32,000 nucleotides of DNA from Pseudodesulfovibrio piezophilus C1TLV30 (GTDB lineage: Bacteria > Desulfobacterota > Desulfovibrionia > Desulfovibrionales > Desulfovibrionaceae): the NCBI RefSeq assembly GCF_000341895.1, contig NC_020409.1, forward strand, positions 3,242,411-3,274,410, written 5' to 3'. Below are positions 1,084 through 28,007 of the stretch, one piece after another (the first letter of the stretch is position 1; every line of letters begins with the position of its first letter). The notes below the pieces were generated by a model. It was not told the DNA's origin, did no database searches, and worked only from the letters and a program-made list of their open reading frames with translations. The position numbers were made by a program, and so were the translations under genes.

Positions 1084-1335
1084 TTTGAAAGAATTATGTG
1101 GAGAGTCCTTTTTTCTCGATTTTTGCTTTTCCCTTTTGTGAATGAAATGAGCAGGATCAGAAAATACAGGATTGATGTGTTTGAAATTATTTTTCTTAAG
1201 AAGCCGAGAAGAAAGAATATTTTTCTCTCTTTGGTGTCAAATCTTGATTAAGTCGAATAGTATTGTGTGAGGGGTCATCTTTCCAATAGTTCTTTATTGT
1301 GTCTATTTGGGCATAATGAAATTATTGGAAGTGAA

Positions 1336-3000: not shown

Positions 3001-3004
3001 TCCC

Positions 3005-3397
3005 ATGCTCAAAGTCAAAGAACCTCCGGCGACAAGTATCGCCATGACCAACCCTACCATGCGGGTGCATCTCTGGCTTGAAAATGAAGAGGGGGTGCTT
3101 TTCGGATTAGGGCGACTGCAATTGCTCCGTCAGGTCGAGCAGTGTGGCTCCCTCAAGGCCGCAGCCGAATCTCTGGGGATGTCCTACCGGGGGGCTTGGG
3201 GGAAGATCAAAACAACAGAGGAGTTACTGGGGCAGAAATTGATCGAAAGAGCTGCCAGCAGGAGGAAGGGGTATCACTTGACTCCCTTTGGTCTGGGGAT
3301 CGCGGAAAGCTTCGACAAATGGTATCGGGAGGTTGAACGATTCGCTTTTGCCAAGAGCGAGGAATTCCTACCTTTTTCACTCAAAAAATATAAGTGA
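3005..3397 (+). CDS. Stand-alone ModE N-terminal-like winged-helix regulator (no Mop/TOBE domain)
   Basis: LRQVEQCGSLKAAAESLGMSYRGAWGKIKTTEELLGQKLIER...GYHLTPFG resembles the ModE/LysR-type HTH domain. GGGAGG lies 7 nt upstream of ATG 3005 and overlaps the stop of the upstream gene. The track ORF starting at 2822 overlaps the previous CDS and was trimmed. Confidence 0.7.
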   Translation: MLKVKEPPATSIAMTNPTMRVHLWLENEEGVLFGLGRLQLLRQVEQCGSLKAAAESLGMSYRGAWGKIKTTEELLGQKLIERAASRRKGYHLTPFGLGIAESFDKWYREVERFAFAKSEEFLPFSLKKYK

Positions 3398-3420
3398 TAC
3401 GAGTCGTGCGACTTCCAATG

Positions 3421-3434
3421 TGTTAAATTTAACA
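3421..3434. promoter_or_regulatory. Perfect 14-bp AT-rich palindrome TGTTAAATTTAACA; candidate operator upstream of fdhA
   Basis: The sequence is self-complementary and lies between the ModE-N-like gene and fdhA, ~110 nt upstream of the fdhA ATG. A second inverted repeat, CGGACA-N5-TGTCCG, lies at about 3475-3491. Confidence 0.35.
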
Positions 3435-3546
3435 TTTTGTAATAATTGTATTTTATGTCACTGTTTTACTAATTCGGACACCGTTTGTCCGATTTGTGAA
3501 ACTGCCGGGCACTTACTGCGCGGCATAGACCCAGGAGGACACTGGT

Positions 3547-6500
3547 ATGAAGCTCGACCGTCGTAGCTTTATGAAGCTCGCAGGTTCTGGAGCGGCGTGT
3601 CTCACCTTAGGGCAGCTCGGAGTGAATCTTTCACCGGTCAAGGCTTATGCAGCGGATATCAAGATATCCGGAGCAAAAGAAGTCGTGACTGTTTGTCCGT
3701 TCTGTTCGGTGAGTTGTCACGTCATTGGTCACGTGAAGGGGGGGGAACTCGTCAATACCGAGGGTGATCCCGATTTTCCGGTTAACGAAGGTGCCTTGTG
3801 TGCAAAGGGTGCGGCCATGTTTAGCATGACCACCAGTCACCACAGGCTTCAGAAACCGCTTTACCGCGCTCCCTATAGCGACAAGTGGGAAGAGAAGAGC
3901 TGGGAGTGGATGCTGGACCGTATGGCTCGGCGCATCAAGGACACTCGTGACAAGGATATTATCCTCAAAAACGAGAAAGGCGACACTGTCAACAGGCTCG
4001 AATCCATGTTCCTGCTGGGAACTTCCCACGCCGGGAACGAGGAATGTGCCATCATTCACCAAGCAATGCGAGGCCTGGGCGTCGTCCACATGGACCACCA
4101 GGCCAGGATCTGACACAGCGCAACTGTTGCGGCTCTGGGAGAGTCGTTCGGACGCGGTGCGATGACCAACCACTGGATTGACATCAAGAATGCCGATTCA
4201 GTCCTTATAATGGGCAGTAATGCTGCCGAACATCATCCGATCTCATTCAAATGGGTCTTGCGGGCCAAGGACAAGGGCGCCACTGTTATGCATGTGGACC
4301 CGAAGTTCTCTCGTACATCCGCACGGTCGGATTTCCATGTTCCCTTGCGGTCCGGTACGGATATCGCTTTCCTCGGGGGCATGATCAAGTACATTCTCGA
4401 AAATGAGAAATTCTTCCACGAATATGTTGTCGAATACACCAATGCCGCGCTCATCGTGGGCAAGGACTATGGTTTCAAGGACGGCCTTTTCACCGGTTAC
4501 GATGCAAAGACCCGTTCCTACGACAAAAGCAAGTGGGGCTTTGAGATGGACTCGAAGGGGGTACCCAAGAGAGACAAGAGTCTCAAACACCCCCGGTGCG
4601 TTTATCAACTGATGAAGGCTCACTATTCGCGCTACAATATCGAGGCGGTTTCAGCCACGACTGGTGTCTCTGCGGAAAACCTGATGAAGGTCTATGAGAA
4701 CTTCGCTGCAACCGGTGTCAAGGACAAGGCCGGGACCATCATGTACGCTCTCGGCTGGACTCAGCATACTGTGGGTGTGCAGAATATTCGCTCCGCCGCC
4801 ATTATTCAGCTTTTGCTGGGCAATATCGGTGTTGCCGGTGGCGGTATCAACGCCCTGCGTGGTGAGCCGAATGTTCAGGGGTCCACAGACCATACCCTGC
4901 TGTACCACATTATCCCCGGCTATATGGCCATGCCGCATAACGGGTGGCAGACCTACGACGAATACGTCAAGGCCAACACCCCGGTGAGCAATGATCCCAT
5001 GTCGGCGAACTGGTGGCAGCACAAGCCCAAGTACTTTGCCAGCCTGCTGAAGGCTTGGTACGGTGAAAAAGCCACCAGAGAAAACGGCTTCTGCTATGAA
5101 CTGCTTCCCAAGATTGAAAAGGGCGAGGATTATTCCTACATGTTCCTGTTCGATCGCATGTATAACAAGCAGATTCGTGGCGGATTCATTATCGGGCTGA
5201 ACCCGATGAACAGTGTCCCGAATACGAATAAGGTCAGAAAGGCCTTGGATAATCTGGACTGGCTGATTACCTCTGAACTGCATCATTCCGAAACTACGGA
5301 CAACTGGCAGCGCCCCGGCGTTGATCCCAAGAAGATCAAGACCGAGGTGTTCCTGTTACCTTCGGCTCACCGTCTGGAGAAGGAAGGGTCCACCACCAAC
5401 TCCGGTCGCTGGTTGCTTTGGCATAATCAGGCTACCAAGCCTGCATACGAGGCCAAGCCGTTTGGTGATCTGTTCTGTGGCGTCATGAACCATGTGAAGG
5501 CTTTGTATGCCAAGGAAGGGGGAACTCTTCCCGAAGCCGTGACCTGGCTTGATTACCCTGAAAAGTATGATCCCGAAGACCTGTGCGCCCGTATCAACGG
5601 TCGTTTCCTCGAAGACACGGAATTCAAGGGCAAGAAATACAAGAAAGGGCAGCAACTGCCGTCCTTTACTGCGCTCAAGGATGACGGCTCCACCATGAGT
5701 CTGAACTGGCTTTATGCCGGGAGTTATACCGAAGAGGGTGGCAACAAGGCCAAACGTCGTGAGACGACACAGACCGAAATGCAGAAGACTATCGGTTTGT
5801 ATCCGAAATGGTCATGGTGCTGGCCGGTCAATCGTCGTATTCTGTACAACCGTGCCTCTGTCGACTTTGACGGCAAGCCATACAATCCGGCCAAGGCCGT
5901 CATTGAATGGAAGGACGGCAAGTGGGTTGGTGATGTGCCTGATGGAGGCTGGCCACCGATTGCCACCGGTAAAGGTCGCTATCCGTTCATCATGTCCAAG
6001 AATGGTTTCGGGCAGATATTCGGTCCGGGACGTCAGGACGGACCGTTCTCCGAACATTACGAACCGGTGGAAACACCAGTTGATTCGAATATGTTCTCCA
6101 AGCAGCTCAGCAGTCCTGTTTACAAGTCCGTGAACAGTGATATGGACAAGCTTGCACAACCCAATAGTCCCGACTATCCCATTGTTCTGACGACTTATAG
6201 TCTGACAGAGCACTGGTGCGGCGGTGGTGAAACAAGAAACGTTCCCAACCTGCTGGAAACCGAGCCTCAACTCTATGTCGAGATGAGCCCGGAACTGGCT
6301 CAGGAAAAAGGTATCGTCAATGGTGATGGTGTGATCGTCGAGAGTATCCGCGGACGGGTCGAGGCCATAGCCATGGTCACGGTTCGCATGCGTCCTCTCA
6401 AGGTCCATGGTCGAATTGTTCACGAAATCGGCATGCCGTTCTGCTTCGGCTGGACAACGCCAGGGACGGGTGATGCCACCAACAGGCTGACGCCTTCGGT

Positions 6501-6588
6501 TGGTGATCCCAATACAACCATCCCTGAGTACAAGGCCTGCTGTGTGAATATTCGTAAGGCAGACAAGCTCACTGAGCTGGCAACCTAA
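3547..6588 (+). CDS. fdhA: Periplasmic formate dehydrogenase catalytic subunit, selenocysteine-containing (TGA at 4111-4113 read as Sec)
   Basis: Track ORFs 3547..4113 and 4162..6588 share one frame. Translating through the TGA gives VVHMDHQARI-U-HSATVAALGESFGRGAMTNHWIDIKNAD, the canonical FDH active-site context. A twin-arginine signal is present (MKLDRRSFMKLAGSGAA...AYA), as is the N-terminal Fe-S Cys motif (VCPFCSVSCH...C). AGGAGG RBS upstream. Confidence 0.93.
4111..4140 (+). promoter_or_regulatory. UGA(Sec) recoding site with candidate SECIS hairpin immediately downstream
   Basis: After the UGA comes CACAGCGCAACUGUUGCGGCUCUGGG. AGCGCAA (4117-4123) can pair with UUGCG(G)CU (4127-4134), with one bulged G. 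The fold was done by eye only. Confidence 0.5.
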
Positions 6589-12774: not shown

Positions 12775-12791
12775 AAGCAGAGGCTGTGCCA
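12775..12791 (-). promoter_or_regulatory. Sigma-54 (-24/-12) promoter TGGCAC-AGCCT-CTGCTT
   Basis: The minus strand reads TGGCACAGCCTCTGCTT with exact GG-N10-GC spacing. The GC lies 38 nt upstream of ATG 12739. A sigma-54 activator gene is directly upstream. Confidence 0.8.
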
Positions 12792-13002: not shown

Positions 13003-13017
13003 AGACTTCTCAGTTCT
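13003..13017. promoter_or_regulatory. Candidate UAS site 3: AGACTT-CTC-AGTTCT
   Basis: Third copy of the TTCTCAGTTCT core. Its centre is 31 bp from site 2, and it overlaps the stop codon of the activator gene. Confidence 0.45.
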
Positions 13018-14407
13018 TGTTTTTGAAATCAGCCCGATAAAGAGAATGCCGATTCATGAGTTTATTTAACTGCCGAGTTGTCACTCCTGCCCTCTGTGCG
13101 GCGTCTTTCATGATGCCATTACATTGTTCCAGCAGGCTTGTGAGATATTGTTTTTCGAATTTATCCACAGTAATCTGTCTCGCCATTTTGAGCGGAAGGT
13201 CTGTTTTGACGGGTGAGGTGACCACTTCGCCTTGGGTATCAAGAAGGTCGGGAGGGAAGCTTTCGGGATGGAGGATTTCACCTGTTTCGAGAATACAGGC
13301 CCGTTCGATGACATTTTCCAACTCTCGGACATTGCCCGGCCAGTCATACTCCAAGAGAGTGTCGAGTACATGGGGATGCATCCCCTTCAATTCCGTGTTG
13401 AGTTGCCCATTGAATTGCCTGATAAAATATTCTGAAAGTCTTGGGATATCTTCTCGGCGTTCCCGCAAAGACGGGATACGGATTGGGAAAACATTCAGTC
13501 TGTAAAAGAGGTCACGGCGAAATTTGCCATCTTCACAAAGTTTTCCCATGTCTTCGTTGGTCGCAGCGATAATGCGGACATCCACGGGAATATCATGCTC
13601 GCCACCGACACGCTGAATCCGCCTTTCCTGGATGACATTGAGCAGTTTAACTTGCACAGATTGGCTGACAGTTCCTATCTCATCAAGAAAAATGGTGCCG
13701 CCTTGAGCCAGTTCAAATTTTCCGAGTTTGCGGCGAACGGCCCCGGTAAAGGCACCTTTTTCGTGGCCGAAAAGCTCACTTTCAACGAGTGTGTCCGGGA
13801 TTGCCCCGCAGTGAATGCTGATGAATGGTTTCTCTTTACGATTGCTATGGGCGTGAAGGAGTTTGGCTATAAGGCTTTTCCCTGTGCCTGTTTCTCCTGT
13901 GAGAAGAACAGTGGTCCGGGTGCCTGCCACCTGTCTGATTTTGACAAAGACAGCGCGCATGGCTTTGCTGTTGGTATCCACATAATCGAGGAAATCTTCA
14001 TTCCAAAATTGATCTCGCAAATAATCCAGTTCTGATTGGAGGACATCGGATTCCCGGACTTTTTTAACAACCAGTCCCAGTTCCTCTTTCTCTATGGGGT
14101 GCGTCAGGTAATCAAACGCCCCGGCGTTGACTGCGTCCACGGCAAATCCGGTTTGCTCTTCATCTGCCATGACTACAATGGCTGCCGACGGGTAGTGCGT
14201 CCAGAAGCTTTCAAGCGCCTTGTTGATGGATTTATTCGACTCAAGCAGGGACTCCACATCGACGAATACTGTATCGACTTCCCTATCCGGGGGCTGCTCT
14301 CCGGATTCAGTTGCTGTTTCCGTGTGGATTTTTGTATCCTGAAAGAGCAGGCTGCCAATTTCTTCGGAACGATTTCCATCGCGCGTGATGACAAGCATTT
14401 TTCTCAT
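13010..14407 (-). CDS. Sigma-54-dependent transcriptional activator (bEBP) with atypical receiver-like N domain, AAA+ domain and Fis-type HTH
   Basis: [15 protein letters not shown] (Walker A), [15 protein letters not shown] (GAFTGA loop), and a C-terminal HTH ([18 protein letters not shown]). In the N domain the acidic pair is replaced (VITRDG) and the conserved Lys is replaced by His (YLTHP). AGGAGG RBS. Confidence 0.9.
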
Positions 14408-16347: not shown

Positions 16348-18147
16348 TTAATAAAACATCATCAGCGCTGTGATCATGACTACCATGTAAATGACCGTCA
16401 TACCAGCGCCACTGCGGACGTAGTCAATGGTCCGGTACCCTCCTGGGCGCATGATCAATGCGTTGACCTGGTGAGTGGGCAGTACAAACGTATTCGAAGC
16501 TGCCACAGCGACCGTCAGGGCCGCTACACGAGGATCAACACCTGCGTTGAGAGCCATGTTCATTGACAGTGGAACCAGCAGGACGGTGGCACCGACATTG
16601 GAAGCCACCAAAGTGAAGAAGGATGTCAGGATACCGATGACTGTGAGCAGGACGACTGCGGATGGTGTGCCAAGTGCAGCCATGATGGTGTCGGCTATAT
16701 ACTTTGCCGCGCCGGTATTCTCAAAGGCCATACCCAGAGGAATGAGTCCTCCAAGCAGGAAAACAGTCATCCAGTCAACTGACTGGTAAGCTTCATCAAT
16801 GGTCAGGACTTTTGTCAGAACCATACCCAAGGCTCCTGTGAGGAGTGCGATGGAGAGCTGAACATGGAAGCCCAGAATCATGACAAGGGAAACAGCCAGC
16901 CACATCAAGGCTACTTTTGCCTTATCCGTTCGTAACAGTTCCCCTTTGACGCCTTCGGTAAAGACGAGGTCGGGCAAGCCTTTGAGCATGTGAAAGACTT
17001 CCCAACGTCCATGCAGGAGCAGGGCGTCACCCGACTCAAGTATGATATCACTCAGCCCACTGATAAAAATCTTGTCTCCACGGAAAATAGCCAATGGCGA
17101 AACCTGGAAACGTTCCCTGATGCGCATATCGGCAAATGTGGTTCCCATGAATTCGGACCGAGGGGTGACAAGACCTTCCATGATACCCGCATTGTTCGGA
17201 GACAATTCCTCGGCAAAGGTGGAGAGTTCAACTTGCAATGTCCAGTTCAGGTCATCAGCCATGTGTTCGACAAATTCCTGCGGACCAACGACAACGAGGT
17301 GGTCGCCGGGGCGAACCTCTTCCTGTGGTGTCGGGGCAAAGATGTGCGTCTTGCCTCCGTCTCGGGCAATGGCGACCAATGTGCAGAAATAGATGGGGCG
17401 AAGATCCAGGGATTTCAATGACTGATCTGATTCCCAGTCCTCCGGCACATGCAGCTCGAAAAGAGAGCCGACATTATTGTAGGTGTTAGAAAGAACGGTC
17501 GACATGGGGCCGGAGTTCTCTTCATCAGCCCTGGTAGGCAAAATGAATCTGCCGAAAAGGATGAAGTAGACAAGGGCCGCTGCTATCAGCAACAGCCCAA
17601 CGGGGGTGACGCTGAATAGCCCGAATGATTCATATTTGGTGCCACCTACAACCATCAGGTCATTGAGAAGAATCAAAGGGCTGGAACCGACAAGGGTCAA
17701 ACAGCCTCCGATGATGGCGCAGAAACCCATGGGCATGAGCAGGCGACCCACGGGGACTCCTGTCTGGTTGCCGATCCGTTTTGCAGCGGGCAAAAAGAGT
17801 GCTGCTGCGCCAATATTCTGCATGAAGCCGGATATGAAAGCCACGGTTCCTGATATGAGAGTCATAATGCGCGATTCGCTTTTTCCGGCGAAGCGCAAAA
17901 TTATTCGGGCCATGGAATTCATGACGCCAGTCTTGTCCAGACCGGCGCCAATGATGATAACTGCTATGATGGAAACAACGGCATTACTGCTCAGTCCGCT
18001 GATGGCTTGTTGAGGGGTTACCAGGCCAAGAAGAGGAAGAAGTACCATCATGATGATACCGACTACGTCGACTCGAACCCATTCGAAGATGAAAAGAAGT
18101 ACAGCAAAAGCGAGTACGGCCATAACCGTAATGATCTCAGGGGTCAT
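16348..18147 (-). CDS. SLC13/DASS-family anion permease with two central TrkA-C (RCK_C) domains
   Basis: Two hydrophobic halves flank two soluble repeats of ~70 aa (…RPGDHLVVVGPQEFVEHM and …ESGDALLLHGRWEVFHML), typical of TrkA-C inserts in YbiR/CitT-like permeases. Confidence 0.8.
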   Translation of the reverse strand: MTPEIITVMAVLAFAVLLFIFEWVRVDVVGIIMMVLLPLLGLVTPQQAISGLSSNAVVSIIAVIIIGAGLDKTGVMNSMARIILRFAGKSESRIMTLISGTVAFISGFMQNIGAAALFLPAAKRIGNQTGVPVGRLLMPMGFCAIIGGCLTLVGSSPLILLNDLMVVGGTKYESFGLFSVTPVGLLLIAAALVYFILFGRFILPTRADEENSGPMSTVLSNTYNNVGSLFELHVPEDWESDQSLKSLDLRPIYFCTLVAIARDGGKTHIFAPTPQEEVRPGDHLVVVGPQEFVEHMADDLNWTLQVELSTFAEELSPNNAGIMEGLVTPRSEFMGTTFADMRIRERFQVSPLAIFRGDKIFISGLSDIILESGDALLLHGRWEVFHMLKGLPDLVFTEGVKGELLRTDKAKVALMWLAVSLVMILGFHVQLSIALLTGALGMVLTKVLTIDEAYQSVDWMTVFLLGGLIPLGMAFENTGAAKYIADTIMAALGTPSAVVLLTVIGILTSFFTLVASNVGATVLLVPLSMNMALNAGVDPRVAALTVAVAASNTFVLPTHQVNALIMRPGGYRTIDYVRSGAGMTVIYMVVMITALMMFY

Positions 18148-18193: not shown

Positions 18194-18790
18194 CTATTTT
18201 GCCCGCAATGTTGCCCGGGTGTATACGGGGATAGTCGTCTTGTTTTTGCATATGACAACGGAATCATCCATTACGTATCTGAATTGAGGGTCAGTCTTGT
18301 GCATTTGGCTGACGACGGAATCCTCGTCTCCCTGGCGGACTTCATGCTCAAAGGCGAGGCCTGCATTGGATGCCATTGTCGAAAAATTCGCGATGTTGCG
18401 TTCCGCCTGGGCGCGGAATCCGGCAAAGTCGCGACCGGTTTCATCGAGGTTGAGGGCGACCAGTGAAGTACGGGTTTTCTTGGCCATGGTGATAGCATAG
18501 TCTGCGATTCCTTGTGAAAAGGAGTTTCCTTTGCAGACAATGAGTATCTTGCATTGTTCTTGTTCACACTGACAGGGGTCTTGCATGGGGGGGATGTCGG
18601 TAGCAGCCGCTTCACGGGTGCGTGAAAATCTCTTGAAAAAAGCCTTCATCGAAGATCCTCCGGATGTTTCCATAAGGTGGTGTTCACGACAGACTACCCA
18701 TGCGCCAACGTGACAGGTGTTGCAGTTTGTGTCGGCCATGGTTTTATAATGCCTGTCCACTAAACTTTTCATACTCTTGAAGAGAGCCAT
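18194..18790 (-). CDS. Hypothetical protein with a Cys/His-rich N-terminus and a USP-like (adenine nucleotide alpha-hydrolase-like) C-terminal domain
   Basis: Strong RBS (AAGGAGTGAAAC-ATG). KILIVCKGNSFSQGIADYAITMAKK...LVALNL resembles a universal-stress-protein fold. It lies 46 nt upstream of the SLC13 gene and is probably co-transcribed with it. Confidence 0.5.
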   Translation of the reverse strand: MALFKSMKSLVDRHYKTMADTNCNTCHVGAWVVCREHHLMETSGGSSMKAFFKRFSRTREAAATDIPPMQDPCQCEQEQCKILIVCKGNSFSQGIADYAITMAKKTRTSLVALNLDETGRDFAGFRAQAERNIANFSTMASNAGLAFEHEVRQGDEDSVVSQMHKTDPQFRYVMDDSVVICKNKTTIPVYTRATLRAK

Positions 18791-19242
18791 GTTTCACTCC
18801 TTGTCTAACGTTTCGAGGGTACGGATCTGCCTCTCAATCGCTTGGATAAGATCAAAACACATGCCAAAATTATTTTTCTGTATAACTAGCTGATATTACT
18901 CATTAAGAGTTTTTTTGCCACTTTTCCTGGAATTTAATGCGATGCAACTTGCAACGATTCTATTTAGAAAAAAAGTTACATTGCTTGGTAAGAGGGCGTT
19001 TATGGGAAAAATGTATGATTCATAATGCAACGTTTTTTGGTCCAAAACCAAAAGGGTTCATCCTGACTCTGAGTCCGAGCTGAAAAAAAGTTTATAGGGC
19101 TTATATTGGTAACCAGAATAACAGGCAGTAAAAATTGCATTATCAGGTGGTTGTGTGCGTTTTTTCACAAATGTTACCCCTTCTGAGGAACTCTTTTGCC
19201 AATGGTTGGGCCAAAGTGAACCTGTTGTTGCGAATTGCAATC

Positions 19243-19271
19243 TTAACAAGCCTTTTACTGCATGATATATA
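19243..19271 (+). promoter_or_regulatory. Possible sigma-70 promoter TTAACA-N17-TATATA upstream of the REC-Lon gene
   Basis: Hexamer match and 17-nt spacing, counted by hand, ~90 nt upstream of ATG 19360. Confidence 0.3.
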
Positions 19272-19359
19272 ATGATTATAGACATGTGCGATTTTTTACG
19301 GCATGCCTGGACTCTGGTCCCTCATCTTTGAATGTGACGACAACGGGAGGATTACGCCC

Positions 19360-21435
19360 ATGAGTTGGTTTGGAATAGGGAAAAAAACAGTGCCCGAAAC
19401 GGTGACTCCTGAATCGGTTGCAACACCGACACCTCCCCCCTCTTTCCCGGTTTCGTCACACCATAGGGAACTCCGTGACAGAATCGAATCAGCGGGATTG
19501 CCAGACGAGATTCTCGACGCTGCCCGATCCGAATTTGAACGTGCTGACAGCATTGATCCCTCTTCGCCGGAATATGCCATCGGTTTGAATTATCTTGATT
19601 TTATTCTTTCCCTCCCCTGGAAAGAACGGACCAAGGATGATCTCGATATTCATCGGGCTGATGAAGTCCTGAATGCACGGCATTTTGGGTTACGGCAAGT
19701 CAAGGATCGGATTTTGGAATTTCTCGCGGTAAAAAACCTTCGAGGCCGCTATTCCCCACGTATTCTGCTGGTTGATGACGAAGCCATCGCACGGGAAAAT
19801 CTGTCAATCGTCTTTGAAATGGACGGGTTTGATGTTGTTGCCGTTGGCAACGGTCTTGAGGCAGTGGCTGCCATGGAAGAGGAGCCTGCCGATGTCGTGG
19901 TATCTGATTTGAAAATGGACGGCATGGATGGGATGGAACTCTTGCAGGTCCTCAGGCAACGGTGGCCTGATACCAAAGTTGTCATGTTGACAGGGTATGC
20001 AACAGTCAAGTCGGCTGTCGAAGCCATGCAACAAGGGGCGGATCAGTACCTTGGCAAACCTGTCAATCTGACAAAACTTCGAAAATATGTGGCCGATCTG
20101 TATGAACAGAGTCTTCGTGTCGAACACTTGCGCGGTCCTGTGCTGTGTTTCTCCGGGCCTCCCGGAATGGGCAAGACCTCCATTGGGAAGGGGATAGCCG
20201 AAGCTCTGGGGAGAAAGTTCATTCGACTTTCTCTTGCTGGGTTGCATGATGAAGCTGAATTGCGCGGTCATCGGCGGACCTATGTGGGGGCCATGCCCGG
20301 TCGTATCTTGCAGGGAATTCAGAAAGCCGGGTCCATGAACCCCGTTATCATGCTGGATGAGGTGGATAAGGCGGTTCAGAATTTTCAGGGCGATGCCACG
20401 TCTGTCTTATTGGAGATGCTTGATCCCGAACAGAACAATGCCTTTGTGGATCATTATCTTGGTCTTCCCTTTGATCTTTCGGGAGCCTTGTTTCTTTGCA
20501 CGGCAAATGCCGTTGAGAGGCTTCCTGCCCCGCTTCTGGATCGGCTTGAGGTCATCCATTTCCCAAGTTACACTCGGCAGGAAAAACTCCATATAGCCAC
20601 ACAGCATTTGGTACCCGAGCAACTGCGGATGCATGGTCTGGATGAGCGCTTGGTATCCTTGACCCCGGAAGCTGTTGCCCAAATCATACGGGAATACACA
20701 CGCGAGGCCGGACTGCGTGGCTTACGGATGCAGGTGGCGTCGCTGTGCCGAAAACTGGCCAAGGAAGTTCTGGCGGATGGGGACGGGCCAAGAGTTGTGG
20801 GGCCGGAAAGAGTGCTTTTTCTTTTGGGACCACCTCCCTTTGCAACGACGGAAGCACAGGGGGCTCCGAAGGTCGGCTTGGCGACAAGTCTGGTCTGGAC
20901 TGAAAATGGTGGTGAGATCATTTTTGTGGAAGCCGCACGAATGCGTGGCAACAAGCACCTTCTGCTTACGGGATCTTTGGGAGAAGTCCTGCGGGAATCC
21001 GCGCATACCGCCTTGAGCTATATCCGCAGCCATGCGGACGAGTTTAGCATAGCGCAGGATTTCTTTGAGAGCAGCGACATTCATGTCCATATTCCCGCCG
21101 GTGCCATTTCCAAGGAAGGCCCATCGGCCGGTGTTTCCATTGCTCTGGCGTTGTTGTCTTTGCTGACAGGGCGACCTGTGCGCCAGGATGTGGCCCTGAC
21201 AGGCGAGTTGTCACTTCTTGGCGACGTTTTGCCGGTCGGTGGAGTTCGGGAAAAGCTGATGGCCGCTCAACAGGCGGGAATCGCAATGGTCATTTTGCCC
21301 AAGGGGTGTGAACGACGTTTGGAGACTATTGAGGAAGAAGTGCTGCATGAGCTTGACATTCGCCTTGTCTCAACGATGGACGAAGCTGCGGCGTTAGCTC
21401 TGTGCGATCCTCCTAGGTCAAATGATATTTCTTAA
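19360..21435 (+). CDS. Lon-family ATP-dependent protease lacking the N-terminal LON domain and carrying an inserted CheY-like receiver (REC) domain
   Basis: Lon helical segment (LPWKERT...HFGLRQVKDRILEFLAV). REC (RILLVDDE...VVVSDLKMDGMDG...VVMLTGY...YLGKP) at about nt 19759-20103. AAA+ (GPPGMGKT, VIMLDEVDK). Lon_C with catalytic Ser (KEGPSAGVS) and Lys (GGVREKLMAA). GGGAGG lies 9 nt upstream of ATG 19360; the track start at 19303 has no RBS. Confidence 0.9.
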   Translation: MSWFGIGKKTVPETVTPESVATPTPPPSFPVSSHHRELRDRIESAGLPDEILDAARSEFERADSIDPSSPEYAIGLNYLDFILSLPWKERTKDDLDIHRADEVLNARHFGLRQVKDRILEFLAVKNLRGRYSPRILLVDDEAIARENLSIVFEMDGFDVVAVGNGLEAVAAMEEEPADVVVSDLKMDGMDGMELLQVLRQRWPDTKVVMLTGYATVKSAVEAMQQGADQYLGKPVNLTKLRKYVADLYEQSLRVEHLRGPVLCFSGPPGMGKTSIGKGIAEALGRKFIRLSLAGLHDEAELRGHRRTYVGAMPGRILQGIQKAGSMNPVIMLDEVDKAVQNFQGDATSVLLEMLDPEQNNAFVDHYLGLPFDLSGALFLCTANAVERLPAPLLDRLEVIHFPSYTRQEKLHIATQHLVPEQLRMHGLDERLVSLTPEAVAQIIREYTREAGLRGLRMQVASLCRKLAKEVLADGDGPRVVGPERVLFLLGPPPFATTEAQGAPKVGLATSLVWTENGGEIIFVEAARMRGNKHLLLTGSLGEVLRESAHTALSYIRSHADEFSIAQDFFESSDIHVHIPAGAISKEGPSAGVSIALALLSLLTGRPVRQDVALTGELSLLGDVLPVGGVREKLMAAQQAGIAMVILPKGCERRLETIEEEVLHELDIRLVSTMDEAAALALCDPPRSNDIS

Positions 21436-22744
21436 TTTTTCGCCACAGGGAAACCCTGTCTATGCCAAGGATTCGTGCTGCTTGTGTCTTGTTCCCACTT
21501 GAGGCGGTCAGGACTTTTCTGATGTGTGCCTTTTCCACGTCTTCCAGTGAAGGGAGAGGGGCTTCGGCTGGCATGTTCCCTACTTCAACGGGAAGCAGGT
21601 CCGGGGTGAAGGATGGTCCCTGTCCCAGAGCCAGTGCTCGCTGGACGATATTTTCCAGCTCACGCGCATTGCCGGGAAACGGGTATCGCATCAGGATGTC
21701 CAGTGTATCTTGCGAGATGGAGTTGATGGTCTGTTCCGCGTGGCGGTGCTTTTCCAAAAAATGTCCCATAAGAATCGGAATGTCCTCGCGGTGCTCCCGT
21801 AAGGGAGGAGCCTGGACAGTAACCACATTGAGTCGATAGTAGAGATCCTGCCTGAATTCTCCCTGCTTGACCAACTCGCGCAAGTCACAGTTTGTCGCCG
21901 CAACGACTCGGATGTCCACGGGTATTTCCCGCGTGCCGCCGACTCGCAGGAAGGTTCGCTCTTGAAGTACCCGCAGGAGCTTGACCTGCATGTTCAGCGG
22001 CAGTTCTCCTATTTCATCAAAGAAGACCGTGCCGCCGTCAGCGACTTCCAGGATACCTTTTTGCCCCCGGTTAGCCCCTGTGAACGCTTCCTTTTCATGG
22101 CCGAATAATTCCTTGTCCATCAGTTCCGCGGTGAAGGTCCCGCAGTTGATAGCCATGAAACGTTCCTCTGAGCGTTGGCTGAGTTGGTGGATGCCTTGGG
22201 CGACCAGTTCCTTGCCTGTCCCGGTTTCTCCCTGGATCAGTACGTTGCAGTTCATCTGGGCCAACTGCTTTACAGTATTCTTGAGTTGAGTGAAGACATC
22301 ACTTTGTCCGACAAGGGGGAAATCACTCTTGCCCTGTGCGATGATCTTTCGAAGTCTGAGGACCTCTACGGACAGGGCATGTTGTTCCAATGCCCGCTCG
22401 ACTTGAAGACGAAGTTCATCGAGTTTCAGTGGCTTGGCGATATACGAATGGGCACCCTTCTGCATTGCCTTGACAGCATTGGCCACAGTCGCATGTCCCG
22501 TGACAACGATGACCATGGTCGAAGGGTGTTGGGCACGGGTGTGCTCCAACATTTGAATACCATCCATGCCGGGAAGCATCAGGTCGGTGATGACGAGGTC
22601 GTATTCCCGTTTTTCCAATTGTCGCAGGCCCTCTTCGGCAGAGACCAGTGCGGTGACTGTATGTCCCGCATTGGTCAGGACATGAGTCAGGTTTTCGCGT
22701 GCGATCTGTTCGTCTTCGACGACCAGAATGGATGCAGCTGTCAT
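21413..22744 (-). CDS. Sigma-54-dependent response regulator (NtrC/AtoC family: REC-AAA+-Fis HTH)
   Basis: Canonical REC (ILVVEDE, LVITDLMLPGMDG, VVTGH, YIAKP), GETGTGKELVA, GHEKEAFTGA, and C-terminal QAARILGIDRVSLWRKI. Its ATG overlaps the kinase stop (ATGA). Confidence 0.92.
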   Translation of the reverse strand: MTAASILVVEDEQIARENLTHVLTNAGHTVTALVSAEEGLRQLEKREYDLVITDLMLPGMDGIQMLEHTRAQHPSTMVIVVTGHATVANAVKAMQKGAHSYIAKPLKLDELRLQVERALEQHALSVEVLRLRKIIAQGKSDFPLVGQSDVFTQLKNTVKQLAQMNCNVLIQGETGTGKELVAQGIHQLSQRSEERFMAINCGTFTAELMDKELFGHEKEAFTGANRGQKGILEVADGGTVFFDEIGELPLNMQVKLLRVLQERTFLRVGGTREIPVDIRVVAATNCDLRELVKQGEFRQDLYYRLNVVTVQAPPLREHREDIPILMGHFLEKHRHAEQTINSISQDTLDILMRYPFPGNARELENIVQRALALGQGPSFTPDLLPVEVGNMPAEAPLPSLEDVEKAHIRKVLTASSGNKTQAARILGIDRVSLWRKIKKYHLT

Positions 22745-24153
22745 GCTGAAACCTCCTGTGAAAGCGGGAGTCTGATATAAAAGGTGGTTCCTTCGCCCGG
22801 AGTGCTCTCGGCGCGGATGGTTCCCCTGTGTTTTTCAATGATGCCATAGACGATGTAGAGGCCGAGTCCGGTTCCCTGTCCTACTTCCTTGGTCGAGAAG
22901 AATGGGTCGAAGATGCGTTGCAGTGTGTCTGCCGACATGCCTTCACCCGTGTCGGATATGGAAATGACCTCGAATCCGTCTTCCTGCCCCATCCGTATAT
23001 CAATGGAGCCTTCCTCGAGGCCAATGGCCTGGATGGCGTTGATGATCAGGTTGATGAACGCCTCCTGAAGCCGTTGTCGGTCCAGTGGCAGCGTGAGGTC
23101 TTCGGGCACACTTATGTTGAGCGCTATGCGTGGTCCGAGTTGGCTGGAGACAAGACGGGCTGCGCTCTCCAGGATCGATTTGAGTTGACAGGGGGCGGGG
23201 GAAAAGTCCTTGTGACGGGAGAATTCGAGTAACCCTTTGACTATGTCTCTGGCCCGGAGTGTTTCCTGATTGATATTTTGCATCATCTTGTCGGCGAATT
23301 CACTCTGTCCCGCAGTTTCTTCAGCCAGAATCTGTGCCGAAGTCGAAATATTATTGAGCGGGTTGTTCAACTGGTGTGCTATCCCCGAAGCAAGGGTTCC
23401 GATGGAAGAGAGTTTTTGGGCCTGAACCAGTTGCAGCTGCCGTTTCTTGAGTTCTTCAACCATGGAATTCAGCGCGACGAAGACCTGTTGGATTTCATCA
23501 TCGGTGTTTTTCACTTCAAGGGGAACAAAAGTCCCCTGAGCTATCTTGCGTGTCGCTTCCTGTACTTCTCGCAAGGGGCGCAGGATGCTTTTTATGATGA
23601 AGACGACAATCGCGCAGACCACCAGGGCAACTATCGCCATGGAAGTGATCAGGGTCATACGAAGCTTTTCATTGATGACAAGAATGCTTTCGCGTTCAAA
23701 TTCAGCAATGGCACGAGAGTGTTCCACAAGGCTCTGCCCGGTTTCCCGGAGGTTCTGGGCCTTGGGCGAGTCTCCTGTCTTATTGGGTGACGCCGCATTG
23801 AACTGGGCAAGCAGGTCGCCATATCGCTGCAATCCTTGCTTGAGGGCGGCTCCATGCTCTCCGCTTCTAGGCTTGGCAAGTTCGACGGACAGGACTTCAA
23901 GGGCTGCTGTTGCTTGTTCCAGGTACTTTGGGCCGATGGAAAAAAGAGCCGTGTTCTGGTAGAGGAAAAAGTTTTTTTCTTCACGGCGAATTTCCAGAAT
24001 CAGGTTGCGGAGGTCGTCCGCGCGTTCGACCAGTAGAACTTCCTGCTGCAGTTGATTGATATTGGAAAGGGACAGCAAGGCTATTCCCCCAAAAGCGAGA
24101 GAAAAAATTGCAATTCCAAATATGATGGTTTGTCTGAGATTCGGTTTGACCAT
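22741..24153 (-). CDS. Sensor histidine kinase (TM - ~150-aa periplasmic helical domain - TM - HAMP - HisKA - HATPase_c)
   Basis: Two TM helices, a HAMP-like segment (ILRPLREVQEATRKIAQGTF...DEIQQVFVALNSM), an H-box (ASGIAHQLNNPLNNI) and G-boxes (DTGEGM, GTGLGLYIV). Confidence 0.9.
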   Translation of the reverse strand: MVKPNLRQTIIFGIAIFSLAFGGIALLSLSNINQLQQEVLLVERADDLRNLILEIRREEKNFFLYQNTALFSIGPKYLEQATAALEVLSVELAKPRSGEHGAALKQGLQRYGDLLAQFNAASPNKTGDSPKAQNLRETGQSLVEHSRAIAEFERESILVINEKLRMTLITSMAIVALVVCAIVVFIIKSILRPLREVQEATRKIAQGTFVPLEVKNTDDEIQQVFVALNSMVEELKKRQLQLVQAQKLSSIGTLASGIAHQLNNPLNNISTSAQILAEETAGQSEFADKMMQNINQETLRARDIVKGLLEFSRHKDFSPAPCQLKSILESAARLVSSQLGPRIALNISVPEDLTLPLDRQRLQEAFINLIINAIQAIGLEEGSIDIRMGQEDGFEVISISDTGEGMSADTLQRIFDPFFSTKEVGQGTGLGLYIVYGIIEKHRGTIRAESTPGEGTTFYIRLPLSQEVSA

Positions 24154-24310
24154 GGGCGACCTCTCCCCTTTGATTTCGGGAAGGCACGAACCTATGCTTC
24201 ACAGAGAAAAAAGGCAAGGAAGTGGATTATCATCGCTCCTGTCTCGTCCCGTTCTTCTCATGGTCAGGTGTGAAGATTGGAGAGAGTGTCCGCTCAATGA
24301 GGCCCATGGC

Positions 24311-24364
24311 TGGATACGGTCACCTGCTTCGATAGGAGAGCATGGGGTGTTGTGACCGTATCCA
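24311..24364. repeat. 13-bp perfect inverted repeat TGGATACGGTCAC ... GTGACCGTATCCA with a 28-nt loop
   Basis: Arms at 24311-24323 and 24352-24364, between the TrmO-like stop and the kinase start. No flanking T-run on either strand. Confidence 0.7.
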
Positions 24365-24406
24365 GTTCATGAGGGGGAGCCGGGATGAACCCCTCAATGG
24401 GGCGGG

Positions 24407-24913
24407 TCACCCTTCGGTGAACGCGGGAGTCTGGTCGGCAAACCTGTTGTCACTGCGATGTGTCTTCGCATTGCCGGATTTGCCTTCAAACCATCCTATG
24501 CGCCTTGCGGGCCATACGTCGAAGTCGGGAACGTATGGCTTGATATCGATGACCGGGGTTTCATCCAGCACGTCGACATTCTCTACCAGCAGCGCTCCGT
24601 TGCGAACTTCCAGTAATGTCATGACAGACAGCCCTAACGGGTTTGGCCGCTTGGGTGAACGGGTCGCAAAGATACCGTGTGTGTCAGTGTCAAGAAATGG
24701 TGTGACTGTCAGGTCGTACCCGGAAACCCTGTGCAGGTGGTAGAGAACGATGATGTGTGAAAAATCTTCAAGATCGACAAGGCCTTCCCGAAATTTTTTA
24801 TGGATGGCAATGGAGCCGAACATGCCGTGCGCTCCAGAAGGCTGAATAGGCATGTCACTGAGGTCTGTGTGCATTGTTCTGAAATGTCCGATCGGAGTAT
24901 ATGCAATAGTCAT
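24407..24913 (-). CDS. TsaA/TrmO-family (YaeB, UPF0066) SAM-dependent methyltransferase-like protein
   Basis: HGIFATRSPKRPNPLGLSV and DVLDETPVIDIKPYVP match the conserved TrmO core (E. coli GVFATRS..RPNPIG and LDGTPVVDIKPY, from memory). Confidence 0.8.
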   Translation of the reverse strand: MTIAYTPIGHFRTMHTDLSDMPIQPSGAHGMFGSIAIHKKFREGLVDLEDFSHIIVLYHLHRVSGYDLTVTPFLDTDTHGIFATRSPKRPNPLGLSVMTLLEVRNGALLVENVDVLDETPVIDIKPYVPDFDVWPARRIGWFEGKSGNAKTHRSDNRFADQTPAFTEG

Positions 24914-24951: not shown

Positions 24952-24968
24952 AAGCAGGAATCGTGCCC
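24952..24968 (-). promoter_or_regulatory. Candidate sigma-54 promoter GGGCAC-GATTC-CTGCTT
   Basis: The minus strand has exact GG-N10-GC spacing and the same CTGCTT -12 region as the promoter at 12775-12791. The GC lies 41 nt upstream of the TrmO-like ATG. Confidence 0.55.
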
Positions 24969-25225: not shown

Positions 25226-25283
25226 TAAATATAGACTTTACAACATTTTTTTTGTGTGCATAATGCCTCAAGGAAGGAATGCT

Positions 25284-26477
25284 ATGAGAGAGTCTTTGCA
25301 GGTTGAGAAATTTGAAAAAATGAGTGACGGGCAGCTTCTGGCCTTGCGGAACTGTCTTGATACAGTCATTTCCGCAAGGGATGGGCTGGTGGGTCAACCC
25401 GATTTCACAATGGCATCCGGCTCGCAAGCCTGTCGTTTTTTTACCGTGCCGGACGGTGTGCGACGGCTGGATAAACATCAGGTTGAACAGCTGACCAGAG
25501 CTTTTGAAGAATGGGTTGGTGAATCTCGTGATGCCCGTACCCTCAGGTCAAGAGAACGTGTTTTTATAACATTTCTTGTTCTTCGGTACACAGGAGCGCG
25601 ATTGGGCGAGGTCCAGTCTTTGGACGAGACTCGAGATATAGATTTTCAGCACTGTTTTGTCCGCCTTCCTCTGGGGACTGGTGTGCATGGGAAAAGTGGG
25701 GTGCGGGAAGTCCCCATTCCAGCGGAAGTCATGGCTCGGATCAGTGAATGGTGTGAGCGAAATGCGAGTGCCAAGTCCAACCGGAACTCCCGTGAGACCC
25801 TGTTCCATTTCGATCAGGGATTCTTGCGCCGTAAATTTCACGAACAGGAAAAGCGGTCAGGGCTGCCCCGCGAATTATTGAATCCGAGCGGTTTGCGGAA
25901 TTCCCGCGCCATTGAATTGATGCAGGGCGGTATGCCAATGCGTGCAGTACAAGCTTTGCTCGGGTATTCCAAATCGGATTTTATTTCATCATTTGTCACT
26001 CTTGCTGACAATGACTTGAAATGTGTTGTTCAGCATTATTGCAAAAAGGAATTCGGAATGGAAACAAGTGCCAGAAATACATTCAAGGGACAGGTTGTTC
26101 GCGTTCTGGCCAATCCTGTAATGTGCGAGATCGTCCTGCGCACAGAATCGGGGTATGAGGTCGCGGCCACGGTGACTAACCAGAGCCGGGAGAAGCTTGG
26201 ACTTGAAGAAGGCCGACCTGCTTCTGCCTTGATCAAAGCGACATGGGTGATCCTTGAAAAAGGTGATACGAAGCCAGAGACCAGCGCCCGGAATGCTTTC
26301 CCCGGAACCATCACCAAGGTGACCAGTGATGGTATCACTGCGGAGGTGGACGGCAGTCTGGACGATGGCACCCCCGTGTGTGCTCTGGTCACCGCAGGCA
26401 GTTTCGAAAAACTCGGTATCGGTGAAGGTGATCGGTTCATTTTCATGTTCAAGGCTATGTCTGTCATTATCAGCTAA
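25284..26477 (+). CDS. tunR: TunR-family Mo/W-responsive regulator: degenerate tyrosine-recombinase-like DNA-binding domain fused to two Mop/TOBE domains
   Basis: Integrase-like box I (LVLRYTGARLGEV) and box II (LRNSRAIELMQGGMPMRAVQALLGYS). The C-terminus has two repeats of TSARN.F.G.(V/I) Mop motifs (TSARNTFKGQVV..., TSARNAFPGTIT...). AGGAAGG RBS before ATG 25284. It lies next to modBAC. Confidence 0.75.
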   Translation: MRESLQVEKFEKMSDGQLLALRNCLDTVISARDGLVGQPDFTMASGSQACRFFTVPDGVRRLDKHQVEQLTRAFEEWVGESRDARTLRSRERVFITFLVLRYTGARLGEVQSLDETRDIDFQHCFVRLPLGTGVHGKSGVREVPIPAEVMARISEWCERNASAKSNRNSRETLFHFDQGFLRRKFHEQEKRSGLPRELLNPSGLRNSRAIELMQGGMPMRAVQALLGYSKSDFISSFVTLADNDLKCVVQHYCKKEFGMETSARNTFKGQVVRVLANPVMCEIVLRTESGYEVAATVTNQSREKLGLEEGRPASALIKATWVILEKGDTKPETSARNAFPGTITKVTSDGITAEVDGSLDDGTPVCALVTAGSFEKLGIGEGDRFIFMFKAMSVIIS

Positions 26478-26531: not shown

Positions 26532-27221
26532 ATGAATATTGTATGGATTGATCTGACGGATTCGGCTTTTTCCGGCCCCTTACTTCTGACTCTCAAAGTG
26601 GCCGGGTTGGCGACGATTTGGTCATTGATTCTGGGAGTGGCAGCAGCGTACGCCCTGTCTCGTTGGCGTTTTTTCGGGCGTGATTTTGCGGATGCTGTCT
26701 TTACCTTGCCCATGGTCATGCCGCCGACCGTGCTCGGGTATTACCTGCTGGTGCTCATTGGTCGCAGGGGTGTCTTGGGTGAATGGCTTCAGGCGAATTT
26801 CGGCATCAGTCTCATGTTTACCTGGCAGGGAGCAGTCATCGCGGCCACGGTGGTTGCCTTTCCGCTGGTGTTCAAATCGGCGCGCGCAGCCCTGGAAGGC
26901 GTGGGGAAGCAGTACGAAAACGCCGCGCGCACCTTGGGCCAGGGGGAACTCTCGGTATTCCTCCGGGTTTCGTTGCCTCTGGCCTTTCGCGGCGTGCTGT
27001 CCGGCGGTATGCTCGCTTTTGCCCGTGCCATGGGCGAGTTCGGTGCCACCCTTATGGTGGCGGGAAATCTTCCAGGTAAGACCCAGACACTCTCTCTCGC
27101 TGTCTACTCTGCCGTTCAAGCCGGAAATGATGGGCTGGCGAACACATTGGTTTTGATTATCAGTGTGGTCTGCGTACTCATCCTCATGGCTACCAGTAAA
27201 CTCTTGCAACCTCGTTTTTAA
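26532..27221 (+). CDS. modB: Molybdate/tungstate ABC transporter permease
   Basis: 229-aa, ~5-TM protein with LPMVMPPTVLGYYLL and the EAA-like loop ENAARTLGQGELSVFLRVSLPLA, typical of ModB/CysTW permeases. Confidence 0.85.
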   Translation: MNIVWIDLTDSAFSGPLLLTLKVAGLATIWSLILGVAAAYALSRWRFFGRDFADAVFTLPMVMPPTVLGYYLLVLIGRRGVLGEWLQANFGISLMFTWQGAVIAATVVAFPLVFKSARAALEGVGKQYENAARTLGQGELSVFLRVSLPLAFRGVLSGGMLAFARAMGEFGATLMVAGNLPGKTQTLSLAVYSAVQAGNDGLANTLVLIISVVCVLILMATSKLLQPRF

Positions 27222-27242
27222 CCACCATTCAAGGAGTTCCCA

Positions 27243-28007
27243 ATGAAACGTTGTCATGTCTTTGTCTTGTGCCTGTTCTCGCTGACTCTTGTTTTCGGAA
27301 GTTCTCAGGCTGCTCAGGCTCAGGAGTTGATTGTGTCGGCTGCGGCCAGTCTTACCGATGCCTTCAGCGATATTGAACCAGCTTTTGAAAAAGCGCACCC
27401 TGGTGTTGATGTCATCATGAATTTTGCTTCATCCGGGGCTTTGTTTCGTCAGATAGAACAGGGCGCACCGGCTGATGTTTATGCTTCTGCCAACCCCAAA
27501 TGGATGCGCAAAGCCGTGGAAAAAGGCTTTGTCGCTCAGGATGACGTCCAGGTCTTTGCCCGTAATTCACTGGTTTTGGCTACTCCTTCGGATAATCCGG
27601 CCGGTGTGAAAACGTTGGCTGACCTGACCGGTCCGTCAGTGAAATCCATTGGTATCGGTACACCTGAGACCGTCCCTGCCGGGCAGTATGCCAAGGGTGC
27701 ATTGACAGCCAAGTCCCTGTACGCCACATTGACTCCGAAGATGATTTTCGGTGAATCTGTTCGTCAGGTTCTGGACTACTTATCCCGTGGCGAAGTCGAT
27801 TGTGGTTTCGTCTACGGCACTGATGCTGTCAAAGCTGGAAAAAGTGTCCGTATTATCGAGGAAGTTCCTCTGGAGAAGCCTGTGACCTATCCCATCTCAG
27901 TGCTCAAGAATTCCGGTGTTTCAGATATGGCCAAGGCATTCGTGGACTTTGTCCGCAGTGATGCTGGTGCTTCCTTGTTGGAAGGCCGTGGTTTCAAGCG
28001 TCCTTAA
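27243..28007 (+). CDS. modA: Molybdate/tungstate ABC transporter periplasmic binding protein
   Basis: Signal peptide (...SSQAAQA), then LIVSAAASLTDAF...NFASSGALFRQIEQGAPADVYASAN, the ModA signature region. AAGGAG RBS. Confidence 0.85.
   Translation: MKRCHVFVLCLFSLTLVFGSSQAAQAQELIVSAAASLTDAFSDIEPAFEKAHPGVDVIMNFASSGALFRQIEQGAPADVYASANPKWMRKAVEKGFVAQDDVQVFARNSLVLATPSDNPAGVKTLADLTGPSVKSIGIGTPETVPAGQYAKGALTAKSLYATLTPKMIFGESVRQVLDYLSRGEVDCGFVYGTDAVKAGKSVRIIEEVPLEKPVTYPISVLKNSGVSDMAKAFVDFVRSDAGASLLEGRGFKRP

Follow-up and report, generated by a model that had tools for sequence, protein, structure and literature searches.

The window analyzed here is a stretch of 32,000 nucleotides from Pseudodesulfovibrio piezophilus C1TLV30 (contig NC_020409.1, positions 3,242,411 to 3,274,410 of the forward strand), and all coordinates below are counted from its first base. 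It carries the gene of a Lon protease with an embedded receiver (REC) domain, here called REC-Lon (19360–21435, + strand; from the open reading frame (ORF) list, with Pfam matches to REC, AAA, Lon_lid and Lon_C). Convergent with this gene lies an operon for a membrane sensor histidine kinase (22741–24153, − strand; Pfam HAMP, HisKA and HATPase_c), in which two transmembrane segments were predicted by eye, and for an NtrC-type sigma-54-dependent response regulator (21413–22744, − strand; Pfam REC, Sigma54_activat, AAA_lid_14 and HTH_8). The kinase and the regulator are orthologs of DVU3304 and DVU3305, and the locus as a whole corresponds in P. piezophilus to the already known DVU3303–DVU3305 three-component system of D. 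vulgaris, in which one kinase probably serves both a sigma-54-dependent and a proteolytic output.

The kinase gene is translationally coupled to the regulator gene through an ATGA overlap (22741–22744, − strand, reading ...tcagcATGAcagct), and the regulator and REC-Lon genes overlap at their convergent 3' ends by 23 bp (21413–21435), as judged from the ORF coordinates and the sequence. An earlier note on this DNA had described the three genes, the coupling and the tail-to-tail overlap in the same terms, and all of these were found at the positions that it gave; its remark that no other kinase is nearby holds within the 32-kb window, which encodes one kinase and three REC-like domains, of which those of REC-Lon and the regulator are the sole full receivers. 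The ORF of REC-Lon has a further in-frame ATG at 19303, giving a 710-aa version, but the start codon is 19360, because the N-terminus conserved in the family (MxWFxK) begins there and a GGGAGG sequence lies 8–13 nt upstream; the P. piezophilus database protein, 691 aa long and 100% identical to REC-Lon, fits this start. The regulator is an NtrC-family enhancer-binding protein by its Pfam domains (REC, AAA+ with the sigma-54 contact loop, Fis-type helix-turn-helix), and the phospho-acceptor set of its receiver (E10/D11, D54, T82, Y101 and K104) is conserved across its family. The first glycine of the GAFTGA contact loop is usually conserved among enhancer-binding proteins. In the window the loop reads EAFTGA, and across 63 regulator orthologs EAFTGA occurred 28 times, GAFTGA 23 times, GAFSGA three times and DAFTGA twice.

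The receiver of REC-Lon is encoded at 19762–20091 (+ strand; Pfam Response_reg, E 3.9e-29) and covers residues 154–263 by Pfam in the numbering of the 710-aa version. Its phospho-acceptor set is complete (D139/D140, the phospho-acceptor aspartate D183, T211, Y230 and K233, in 691-aa numbering) and invariant in every family member examined. The protein scored 666 bits against the TIGR00763 lon model (cut-off 608), and the Walker A residue K272, the Walker B residues D333/E334 and the catalytic S589 and K632 were invariant among 12 diverse members. The LON_substr_bdg domain (PF02190) gave no Pfam match in REC-Lon, and the alignment with E. coli Lon begins at E. coli residue 251. REC-Lon thus belongs to the LonA-type AAA+ serine proteases but is missing some 250 residues at the N-terminus of LonA, the substrate-binding N domain. 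In alignments with PDB sequences, REC-Lon residues 37–127 match residues 12–102 of B. subtilis LonA (equivalent to E. coli Lon 251–342) and residues 255–297 match B. subtilis LonA 104–146. Because the two flanks align contiguously with LonA, residues 128–254, comprising 127 residues of receiver and linkers, are a clean insertion, located between the pre-AAA LAVxxL helix (..ILEFLAVKNL) and beta1/Walker A (GPVLCFSGPPGMGKTS). A PDB sequence search returned no entry with this architecture. In the AlphaFold model of REC-Lon each domain is folded, and the receiver is a well-folded (beta/alpha)5 domain (predicted local distance difference test (pLDDT) 82–91) between low-confidence linkers; given these linkers and a predicted template modeling score (pTM) of 0.50, the placement of the receiver relative to the AAA+ ring was left uninterpreted.

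Rajeev et al. 2011 (PMC3333781) gave the name three-component system to the D. vulgaris Hildenborough genes DVU3303 (Lon response regulator), DVU3304 (kinase) and DVU3305 (sigma-54 response regulator) and already proposed that one kinase controls both regulators. DNA-affinity-purified-chip analysis showed binding of DVU3305 between DVU3302 and DVU3303, and the D. vulgaris site GTTGCGATATGCAAC was validated by electrophoretic mobility shift assay (PMC3333781, Tables S6 and S7). The same study reported the regulator, its association with the Lon response regulator and the motif to be conserved in D. salexigens, D. magneticus, Desulfomicrobium, Thermodesulfovibrio, Dechloromonas and Thioalkalivibrio. 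The regulon given by Kazakov et al. 2015 (PMC4641369) comprises DVU3302–3298 and DVU3303–3305, the latter operon without a sigma-54 promoter. In the fitness data of Trotter et al. 2023 (PMC10102598), DVU3303–3305 show pairwise cofitness above 0.9 and their mutants gain fitness in chlorate, while the target transporter DVU3299 (annotated as an anion transporter) has the opposite phenotype. A literature search found no biochemical study of any REC-Lon protein.

The REC-Lon locus of Solidesulfovibrio magneticus (L080) ties the present ortholog set to the published one: upstream of its REC-Lon gene stands the DMR_10810 site GTTGCGAAACGCAAC, identical to the published sequence (PMC3333781, Table S9), and orthology to DVU3303–3305 was traced through this locus. 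The same three proteins occur in D. vulgaris and in the window, both have a divergent operon for universal stress protein (USP)-like and membrane transport proteins, and the motif GTTGCR-N3-TGCAAC occurs in the divergent region of both, in the window as predicted sites. The contact loop of the regulator is EAFTGA in the window and GAFSGA in DVU3305 (PMC4641369). The gene order differs: the kinase-regulator operon converges on Lon in the window, whereas the D. vulgaris genes, from their numbers and the operon annotation in these papers, appear to form a co-directional Lon-kinase-regulator operon.

Conservation of the neighborhood was assessed by using an alignment specific to the receiver to scan a single genome of each species, which gave 80 REC-Lon loci out of at least 576 matches; three further loci came from exact-protein look-ups. 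The orders sampled were Desulfovibrionales, Desulfobulbales, Syntrophobacterales, Desulfobaccales and Desulfobacterales. Neighbors were tallied by tblastn with the window proteins at 76 informative loci, at which the regulator orthologs of other REC-Lon loci were 49–86% identical over their full length. At 50 of the 76 loci the regulator ortholog is adjacent to and convergent with REC-Lon (alignment-end offset −16 to +217 bp), nearly always with the kinase beside it; at 10 more it is downstream and convergent at a distance of 0.8–7.8 kb, and at six it is upstream within the flank. The kinase/regulator pair therefore lies within ~10 kb of REC-Lon at 66 of 76 loci, in five orders of Desulfobacterota, and conservation across orders rules out chance adjacency. 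Other Desulfovibrionales loci are as tight as the window (mostly −10 to +22 bp), with wider spacing at L037 (100 bp) and L011 (217 bp). The kinase-regulator-Lon neighborhood, which the earlier note had suggested be checked across genomes, is thus a conserved one.

The receivers of REC-Lon and of the regulator had been put at about 44% identity by hand alignment; BLASTP gave 56 identical positions of 125 (45%, E 3e-27), with both of the shared stretches that had been singled out (DE.IARENL and AV.AMQ.GA..Y..KP) in its alignment, and MAFFT gave 42.5% over 120 columns. Between families, the Lon receivers and the DVU3305-type NtrC receivers were 47.7 ± 3.9% identical, against 29.9 ± 6.7% (maximum 45%) for Lon receivers and 22 other receivers of the same loci and 36.3 ± 3.2% (maximum 48%) for Lon receivers and 60 high-scoring library receiver domains, so the two families are closer to each other than to either background set of sampled receivers. 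The 60 outgroup domains were taken from the top 150 matches in a representative library of 1.8 billion proteins. A ranking of the nearest non-Lon receivers in that library was dropped, as the top 150 were mostly multi-receiver proteins with additive scores; the library matches served as outgroup only for this reason. In a neighbor-joining analysis of 133 receivers, the Lon receivers were monophyletic (85% bootstrap), with the regulator receivers paraphyletic around them, and the nearest out-of-family neighbor belonged to the other family for 27/27 Lon receivers and 24/24 regulator receivers. By these comparisons the Lon and regulator receivers are reciprocal nearest families among the receivers sampled.

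Receiver helix alpha1 is the main kinase-docking and specificity element according to covariation and rewiring studies and the HK853–RR468 complex. Skerker and colleagues (2008) and Casino and colleagues (2009) are reported to have established alpha1 in this docking role. In both receiver families this helix reads DE-x-I-A-R-x-N-[LM]-x-[HY]-[VI]-L-x-K, with I in 98% of Lon and 98% of regulator receivers, A in 100% and 93%, R in 98% and 93%, and N in 100% of both. The DE-x-IAR-x-N motif was absent from the 22 other receivers in REC-Lon loci, and among the best 150 library matches (~410 receiver domains) one protein carries it, besides a REC-Lon fragment. On the kinase side, 59 orthologs that are 38–73% identical overall to the kinase of the window all have the same segment of the dimerization and histidine phosphotransfer (DHp) helix after the phospho-accepting histidine, AHQLNNPLNNISTS. 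The alpha4/beta5 segments TG[YFH]A[TS]V..AV.A...GA..Y..KP are likewise strongly conserved in both receiver families. The three-way frozen interface formed by the kinase DHp helix and alpha1 of the two receivers matches what a shared kinase predicts; though indirect, it speaks more strongly for the branched model than any other sequence evidence.

The 569-bp region between REC-Lon and the divergent USP-like gene (18791–19359) contains three matches to the DVU3305 motif, against ~0.3 expected from the window-wide rate, and their positions are conserved in related loci. Predicted site 1, GATGCAACTTGCAAC (18941–18955, from the motif scan), lies ~75 bp upstream of a candidate sigma-54 promoter and keeps its position ~150 nt from the ATG of the USP-like gene in five other Pseudodesulfovibrio-like loci. 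Predicted site 2, GATTCATAATGCAAC (19017–19031), has two mismatches to the core and one perfect half-site, and predicted site 3, GTTGCGAATTGCAAT (19227–19241), lies 133 nt upstream of the REC-Lon ATG. Across the scan, a site with at most one mismatch occurs within 450 bp upstream of REC-Lon in 69/80 loci, with 3.70 sites per kb there and a background of 0.069 per kb (54-fold enrichment), and such sites are present also where kinase and regulator are not adjacent. The core palindrome GTTGCCGTTGGCAAC is in addition matched perfectly within the REC-Lon coding region (19837–19851, + strand); this match does not have the extended TGCAAC half-sites and is probably due to chance.

The candidate sigma-54 promoter, TGGCATGTGTTTTGAT (18851–18866, − strand), is placed to serve the USP-like/transporter operon, 60 nt before the ATG of the divergent gene. 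It has the form TGGCATG-N4-TTGAT, in which the −12 element is a non-canonical TTGA instead of TTGC. In eight Desulfovibrionales loci TGGCATG and TTGAT are conserved with a variable spacer, and the element stands 46–61 nt before the ATG in seven of them and 204 nt before it in L037. In other orders, similar elements lie on the divergent strand; at a strict cut-off, they were found there in 16/80 loci and toward Lon in 1/80, and none was found ahead of REC-Lon in the window. Direct sigma-54 activation of REC-Lon itself was therefore dropped from consideration, in agreement with the D. vulgaris regulon (PMC4641369), and since the promoter elements point toward the divergent operon, it is this operon that the regulator most likely activates via sigma-54.

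The first gene of that operon encodes the USP-like protein (18194–18790, − strand, 198 aa; identified by its jackhmmer family and predicted fold), which is divergent from REC-Lon. A homolog occupies this upstream, divergent position in 55/76 loci by jackhmmer, and the gene is present even at loci whose kinase and regulator have moved away from REC-Lon or were not found in the flank (L001, L004, L035, L036 and L056); it is the partner most tightly linked to REC-Lon, and likely a target of the regulator. The window protein had no match in Pfam or NCBIfam, and a PDB profile search with it gave nothing significant. Relatives carry the NCBI name 'universal stress protein', and the AF2 model is confident over the C-terminal domain (residues 81–170, pLDDT 80–94); structures annotated as universal stress proteins make up 26 of its first 28 Foldseek matches in the PDB (best E 1e-4). 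A universal-stress-protein fold is therefore supported at the level of the predicted structure. The conserved N-terminus, in which Y15, N24-T25-C26, G29 and W31 are invariant, carries a CNTCxVGxW motif, and a second cysteine cluster (CxC..C) precedes the USP fold; this Cys-rich segment could be a metal or redox site. Several database entries for the family begin at an internal methionine (150–159 aa) and are missing the N-terminal ~40 residues, and members from other orders have an added two-helix membrane tail.

Downstream of the USP-like gene lies a CitMHS/DASS-type anion transporter with TrkA_C domains (16348–18147, − strand; Pfam and NCBIfam DASS), which is conserved at this place in Desulfovibrionales as well as in L001, L046 and L047 and is probably the counterpart of the DVU3299 target. 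An NhaB antiporter is also found downstream on the same strand, and the set of USP-like protein, transporter and antiporter fits the description of the D. vulgaris targets as 'membrane and UspA-type'.

Taken together, the data are best accounted for by a branched pathway, the model put forward in the earlier note, and we regard it as likely that one kinase drives both a sigma-54 output and a Lon output. In this scheme the membrane HAMP histidine kinase would autophosphorylate and pass its phosphoryl group to two paralogous receivers. On the transcriptional branch, the sigma-54 regulator would bind the GTTGCR-N3-TGCAAC sites between the USP-like gene and REC-Lon and drive the sigma-54 promoter of the USP-like/anion-transporter operon, and the site nearest Lon may also influence Lon expression. 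On the proteolytic branch, phosphorylation of D183 in the receiver inserted into a LonA protease without its substrate-binding N domain would switch the ATPase or protease activity of Lon, or the assembly of its hexamer. Gene content, intact domains, conserved synteny and conserved binding sites, DNA binding by the D. vulgaris regulator and cofitness of the three genes are established here or in the literature, whereas phosphorylation of the Lon receiver by this kinase, and activation of proteolysis as its effect, are inferred. Synteny, the kinship of the two receivers, the shared alpha1 motif and the invariant DHp helix together make the branched model the best-supported reading.

Several results weigh against this model. 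The kinase and regulator were not found in the flank at 10 of the 76 loci. Single unrelated receivers attain 44–48% identity to the Lon receiver, so that an identity of 45% is not by itself unique, and the joint clade of Lon and NtrC receivers, although present in the full-data neighbor-joining tree, has a bootstrap value of just 26%. Across 63 genomes, Lon receivers are 46.9% identical to the receiver of their own neighbor and 46.5% identical to the regulator receivers of other genomes, and own partners fall at uniformly distributed ranks; there is therefore no co-evolution signal beyond the shared invariant residues, and a search for within-genome co-evolution of the two receivers gave a few correlated columns, confounded by phylogeny. 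The same figures indicate that the receiver duplication is ancient, and neither gene conversion nor partner-specific drift was seen between the receivers of the 63 genomes. The description of the regulator receiver as a close paralog of the Lon receiver thus stands insofar as the two families are related above background, but not in the sense of a recent duplication. In D. vulgaris, an operon of Lon, kinase and regulator would in our view allow transposon polarity to explain the cofitness without a role for Lon. The literature search also found no phosphotransfer experiment for any member.

The absence of a kinase from some flanks and of within-genome covariation between the receivers would also be expected if the link were transcriptional only, with the regulator controlling REC-Lon together with the USP-like operon while the Lon receiver takes its phosphate from an orphan kinase elsewhere in the genome or from acetyl phosphate. 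The predicted sites upstream of REC-Lon in 69/80 loci, some of them lacking an adjacent kinase, speak for such an arrangement as well. Without a common partner, however, it is hard to account for the rare alpha1 motif that both receivers share and for the invariant DHp helix, no sigma-54 promoter points toward Lon, and the D. vulgaris Lon operon likewise has none (PMC4641369); we consider a purely transcriptional link unlikely. That the two receivers resemble each other generically and are neighbors by chance could be entertained on the grounds that unrelated receivers reach similar identities, but this is extremely improbable in the face of the pairing within 10 kb at 66/76 loci in five orders, the reciprocal nearest-neighbor relation of the receiver families and the 54-fold enrichment of predicted regulator sites upstream of REC-Lon.

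It is also conceivable, though quite unlikely, that the Lon receiver does not act as an output switch: it might be a phosphate sink that competes with the regulator, or a recruitment module that makes Lon a feedback or reset device. In the recruitment variant, the receiver would pair with that of the regulator via the alpha4-beta5-alpha5 face and deliver the regulator or the USP-like protein to Lon. Receivers of the NtrC1/DctD type dimerize through this face, which was counted in favor of recruitment, as were the strong conservation of the alpha4/beta5 segments in both families and the position of the receiver near the usual place of the missing substrate-binding domain. The AlphaFold model, with its pTM of 0.50, gives no information on interfaces. 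If the receiver were purely a sink, Lon mutants should behave in the opposite way to kinase and regulator mutants, but the published fitness effects are alike (PMC10102598), subject to the same polarity caveat. The most specific form of the recruitment idea, that the inserted receiver takes the place of the lost substrate domain in function as well as in space and, when phosphorylated or when unphosphorylated, feeds the paired regulator or a docked USP-like protein into the Lon chamber, is a doubtful proposition.

The branched model can be compared with several known systems. RssB (acting with ClpXP on RpoS) and CpdR (ClpXP, Caulobacter) likewise couple receiver phosphorylation to regulated proteolysis, and the sequence matches found with the Lon receiver include receivers of both types. 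RssB and CpdR, however, are proteins in their own right that bring substrates to ClpXP or prime it, whereas the REC-Lon receiver is inserted in the protease polypeptide and is not known to act as an adaptor. The closest solved relatives of the Lon receiver include FleR, NtrC1 and DctD. In NtrC1 and DctD, whose receivers control assembly of the AAA+ ring, the receiver stands directly N-terminal to an AAA+ module, as in REC-Lon, but that module is a sigma-54 activator and not a Lon unfoldase-protease. Canonical LonA proteins (E. coli Lon and B. subtilis LonA) have the AAA+, lid and S16 protease domains and the catalytic residues in common with REC-Lon; they differ from it in possessing the first ~250 residues and in lacking the 127-residue receiver-plus-linker insertion before Walker A. 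The chemotaxis kinase CheA, which acts on the two regulators CheY and CheB, offers a precedent for branching similar to that proposed here with shared docking determinants, although the outputs proposed from sequence for the REC-Lon module, transcription and proteolysis, are unlike those of the CheA system.

Other features of the window were noted in passing. A TrmO-like gene (24407–24913) was considered as part of the module and rejected, as it is found in no other REC-Lon locus. A sigma-54-like element, GGGCACGATTCCTGCT (24953–24968, − strand), lies 40 nt upstream of it, and no DVU3305-type site was found near that element. The stretch from the stop codon of TrmO to the start of the kinase gene contains an inverted repeat of 12 bp without mismatches, GGATACGGTCAC...GTGACCGTATCC, whose arms are 26 nt apart (~24313–24362, read on the − strand); no T-run follows it, and it may serve as a regulator site or form an RNA hairpin. 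A second sigma-54 activator (13010–14407, − strand) was rejected as a competitor for the kinase because its REC-like N-terminus is degenerate (29 bits). It has no kinase partner in the window, and a near-consensus sigma-54 promoter, TGGCACAGCCTCTGCT (12776–12791, − strand), follows it closely on that strand.

The gene at 25254–26477 (+ strand) encodes a protein that joins a phage-integrase-like domain at its N-terminus to two TOBE (molybdate-binding) domains, and it adjoins a modA/modB-like ABC transporter (26532–28007). The fusion appears to resemble the TunR family, tungstate- and molybdate-responsive regulators described in sulfate reducers. Together with an FmdE/MoCF_biosynth fusion and a molybdopterin oxidoreductase (1267–6588, + strand), these genes make the window rich in molybdenum- and tungsten-related functions. 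The screen that gave the DVU3303–3305 chlorate phenotype also highlighted molybdenum-cofactor genes (PMC10102598), an overlap of theme that may be coincidence.

As the idea of a shared kinase has been in print since 2011 with genetic support, the window adds another ortholog to the system and is not its discovery. What is added is the breadth and form of its conservation, the frozen docking surfaces, and a fourth component, the Cys-rich USP-like protein, which is an obvious candidate substrate or co-regulator. Because Lon is transcribed apart from the kinase and regulator in P. piezophilus, genetics in this organism would escape the polarity problem expected in D. vulgaris. Should the receiver feed the regulator to Lon, one kinase would determine how active its own transcription factor is and also how long it persists. 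A more modest version, if true, could make REC-Lon the first AAA+ protease with an unfoldase ring gated directly by two-component phosphorylation. Direct phospho-control of Lon by a histidine kinase would be an unusual two-component output, with proteolysis switched inside the protease itself.

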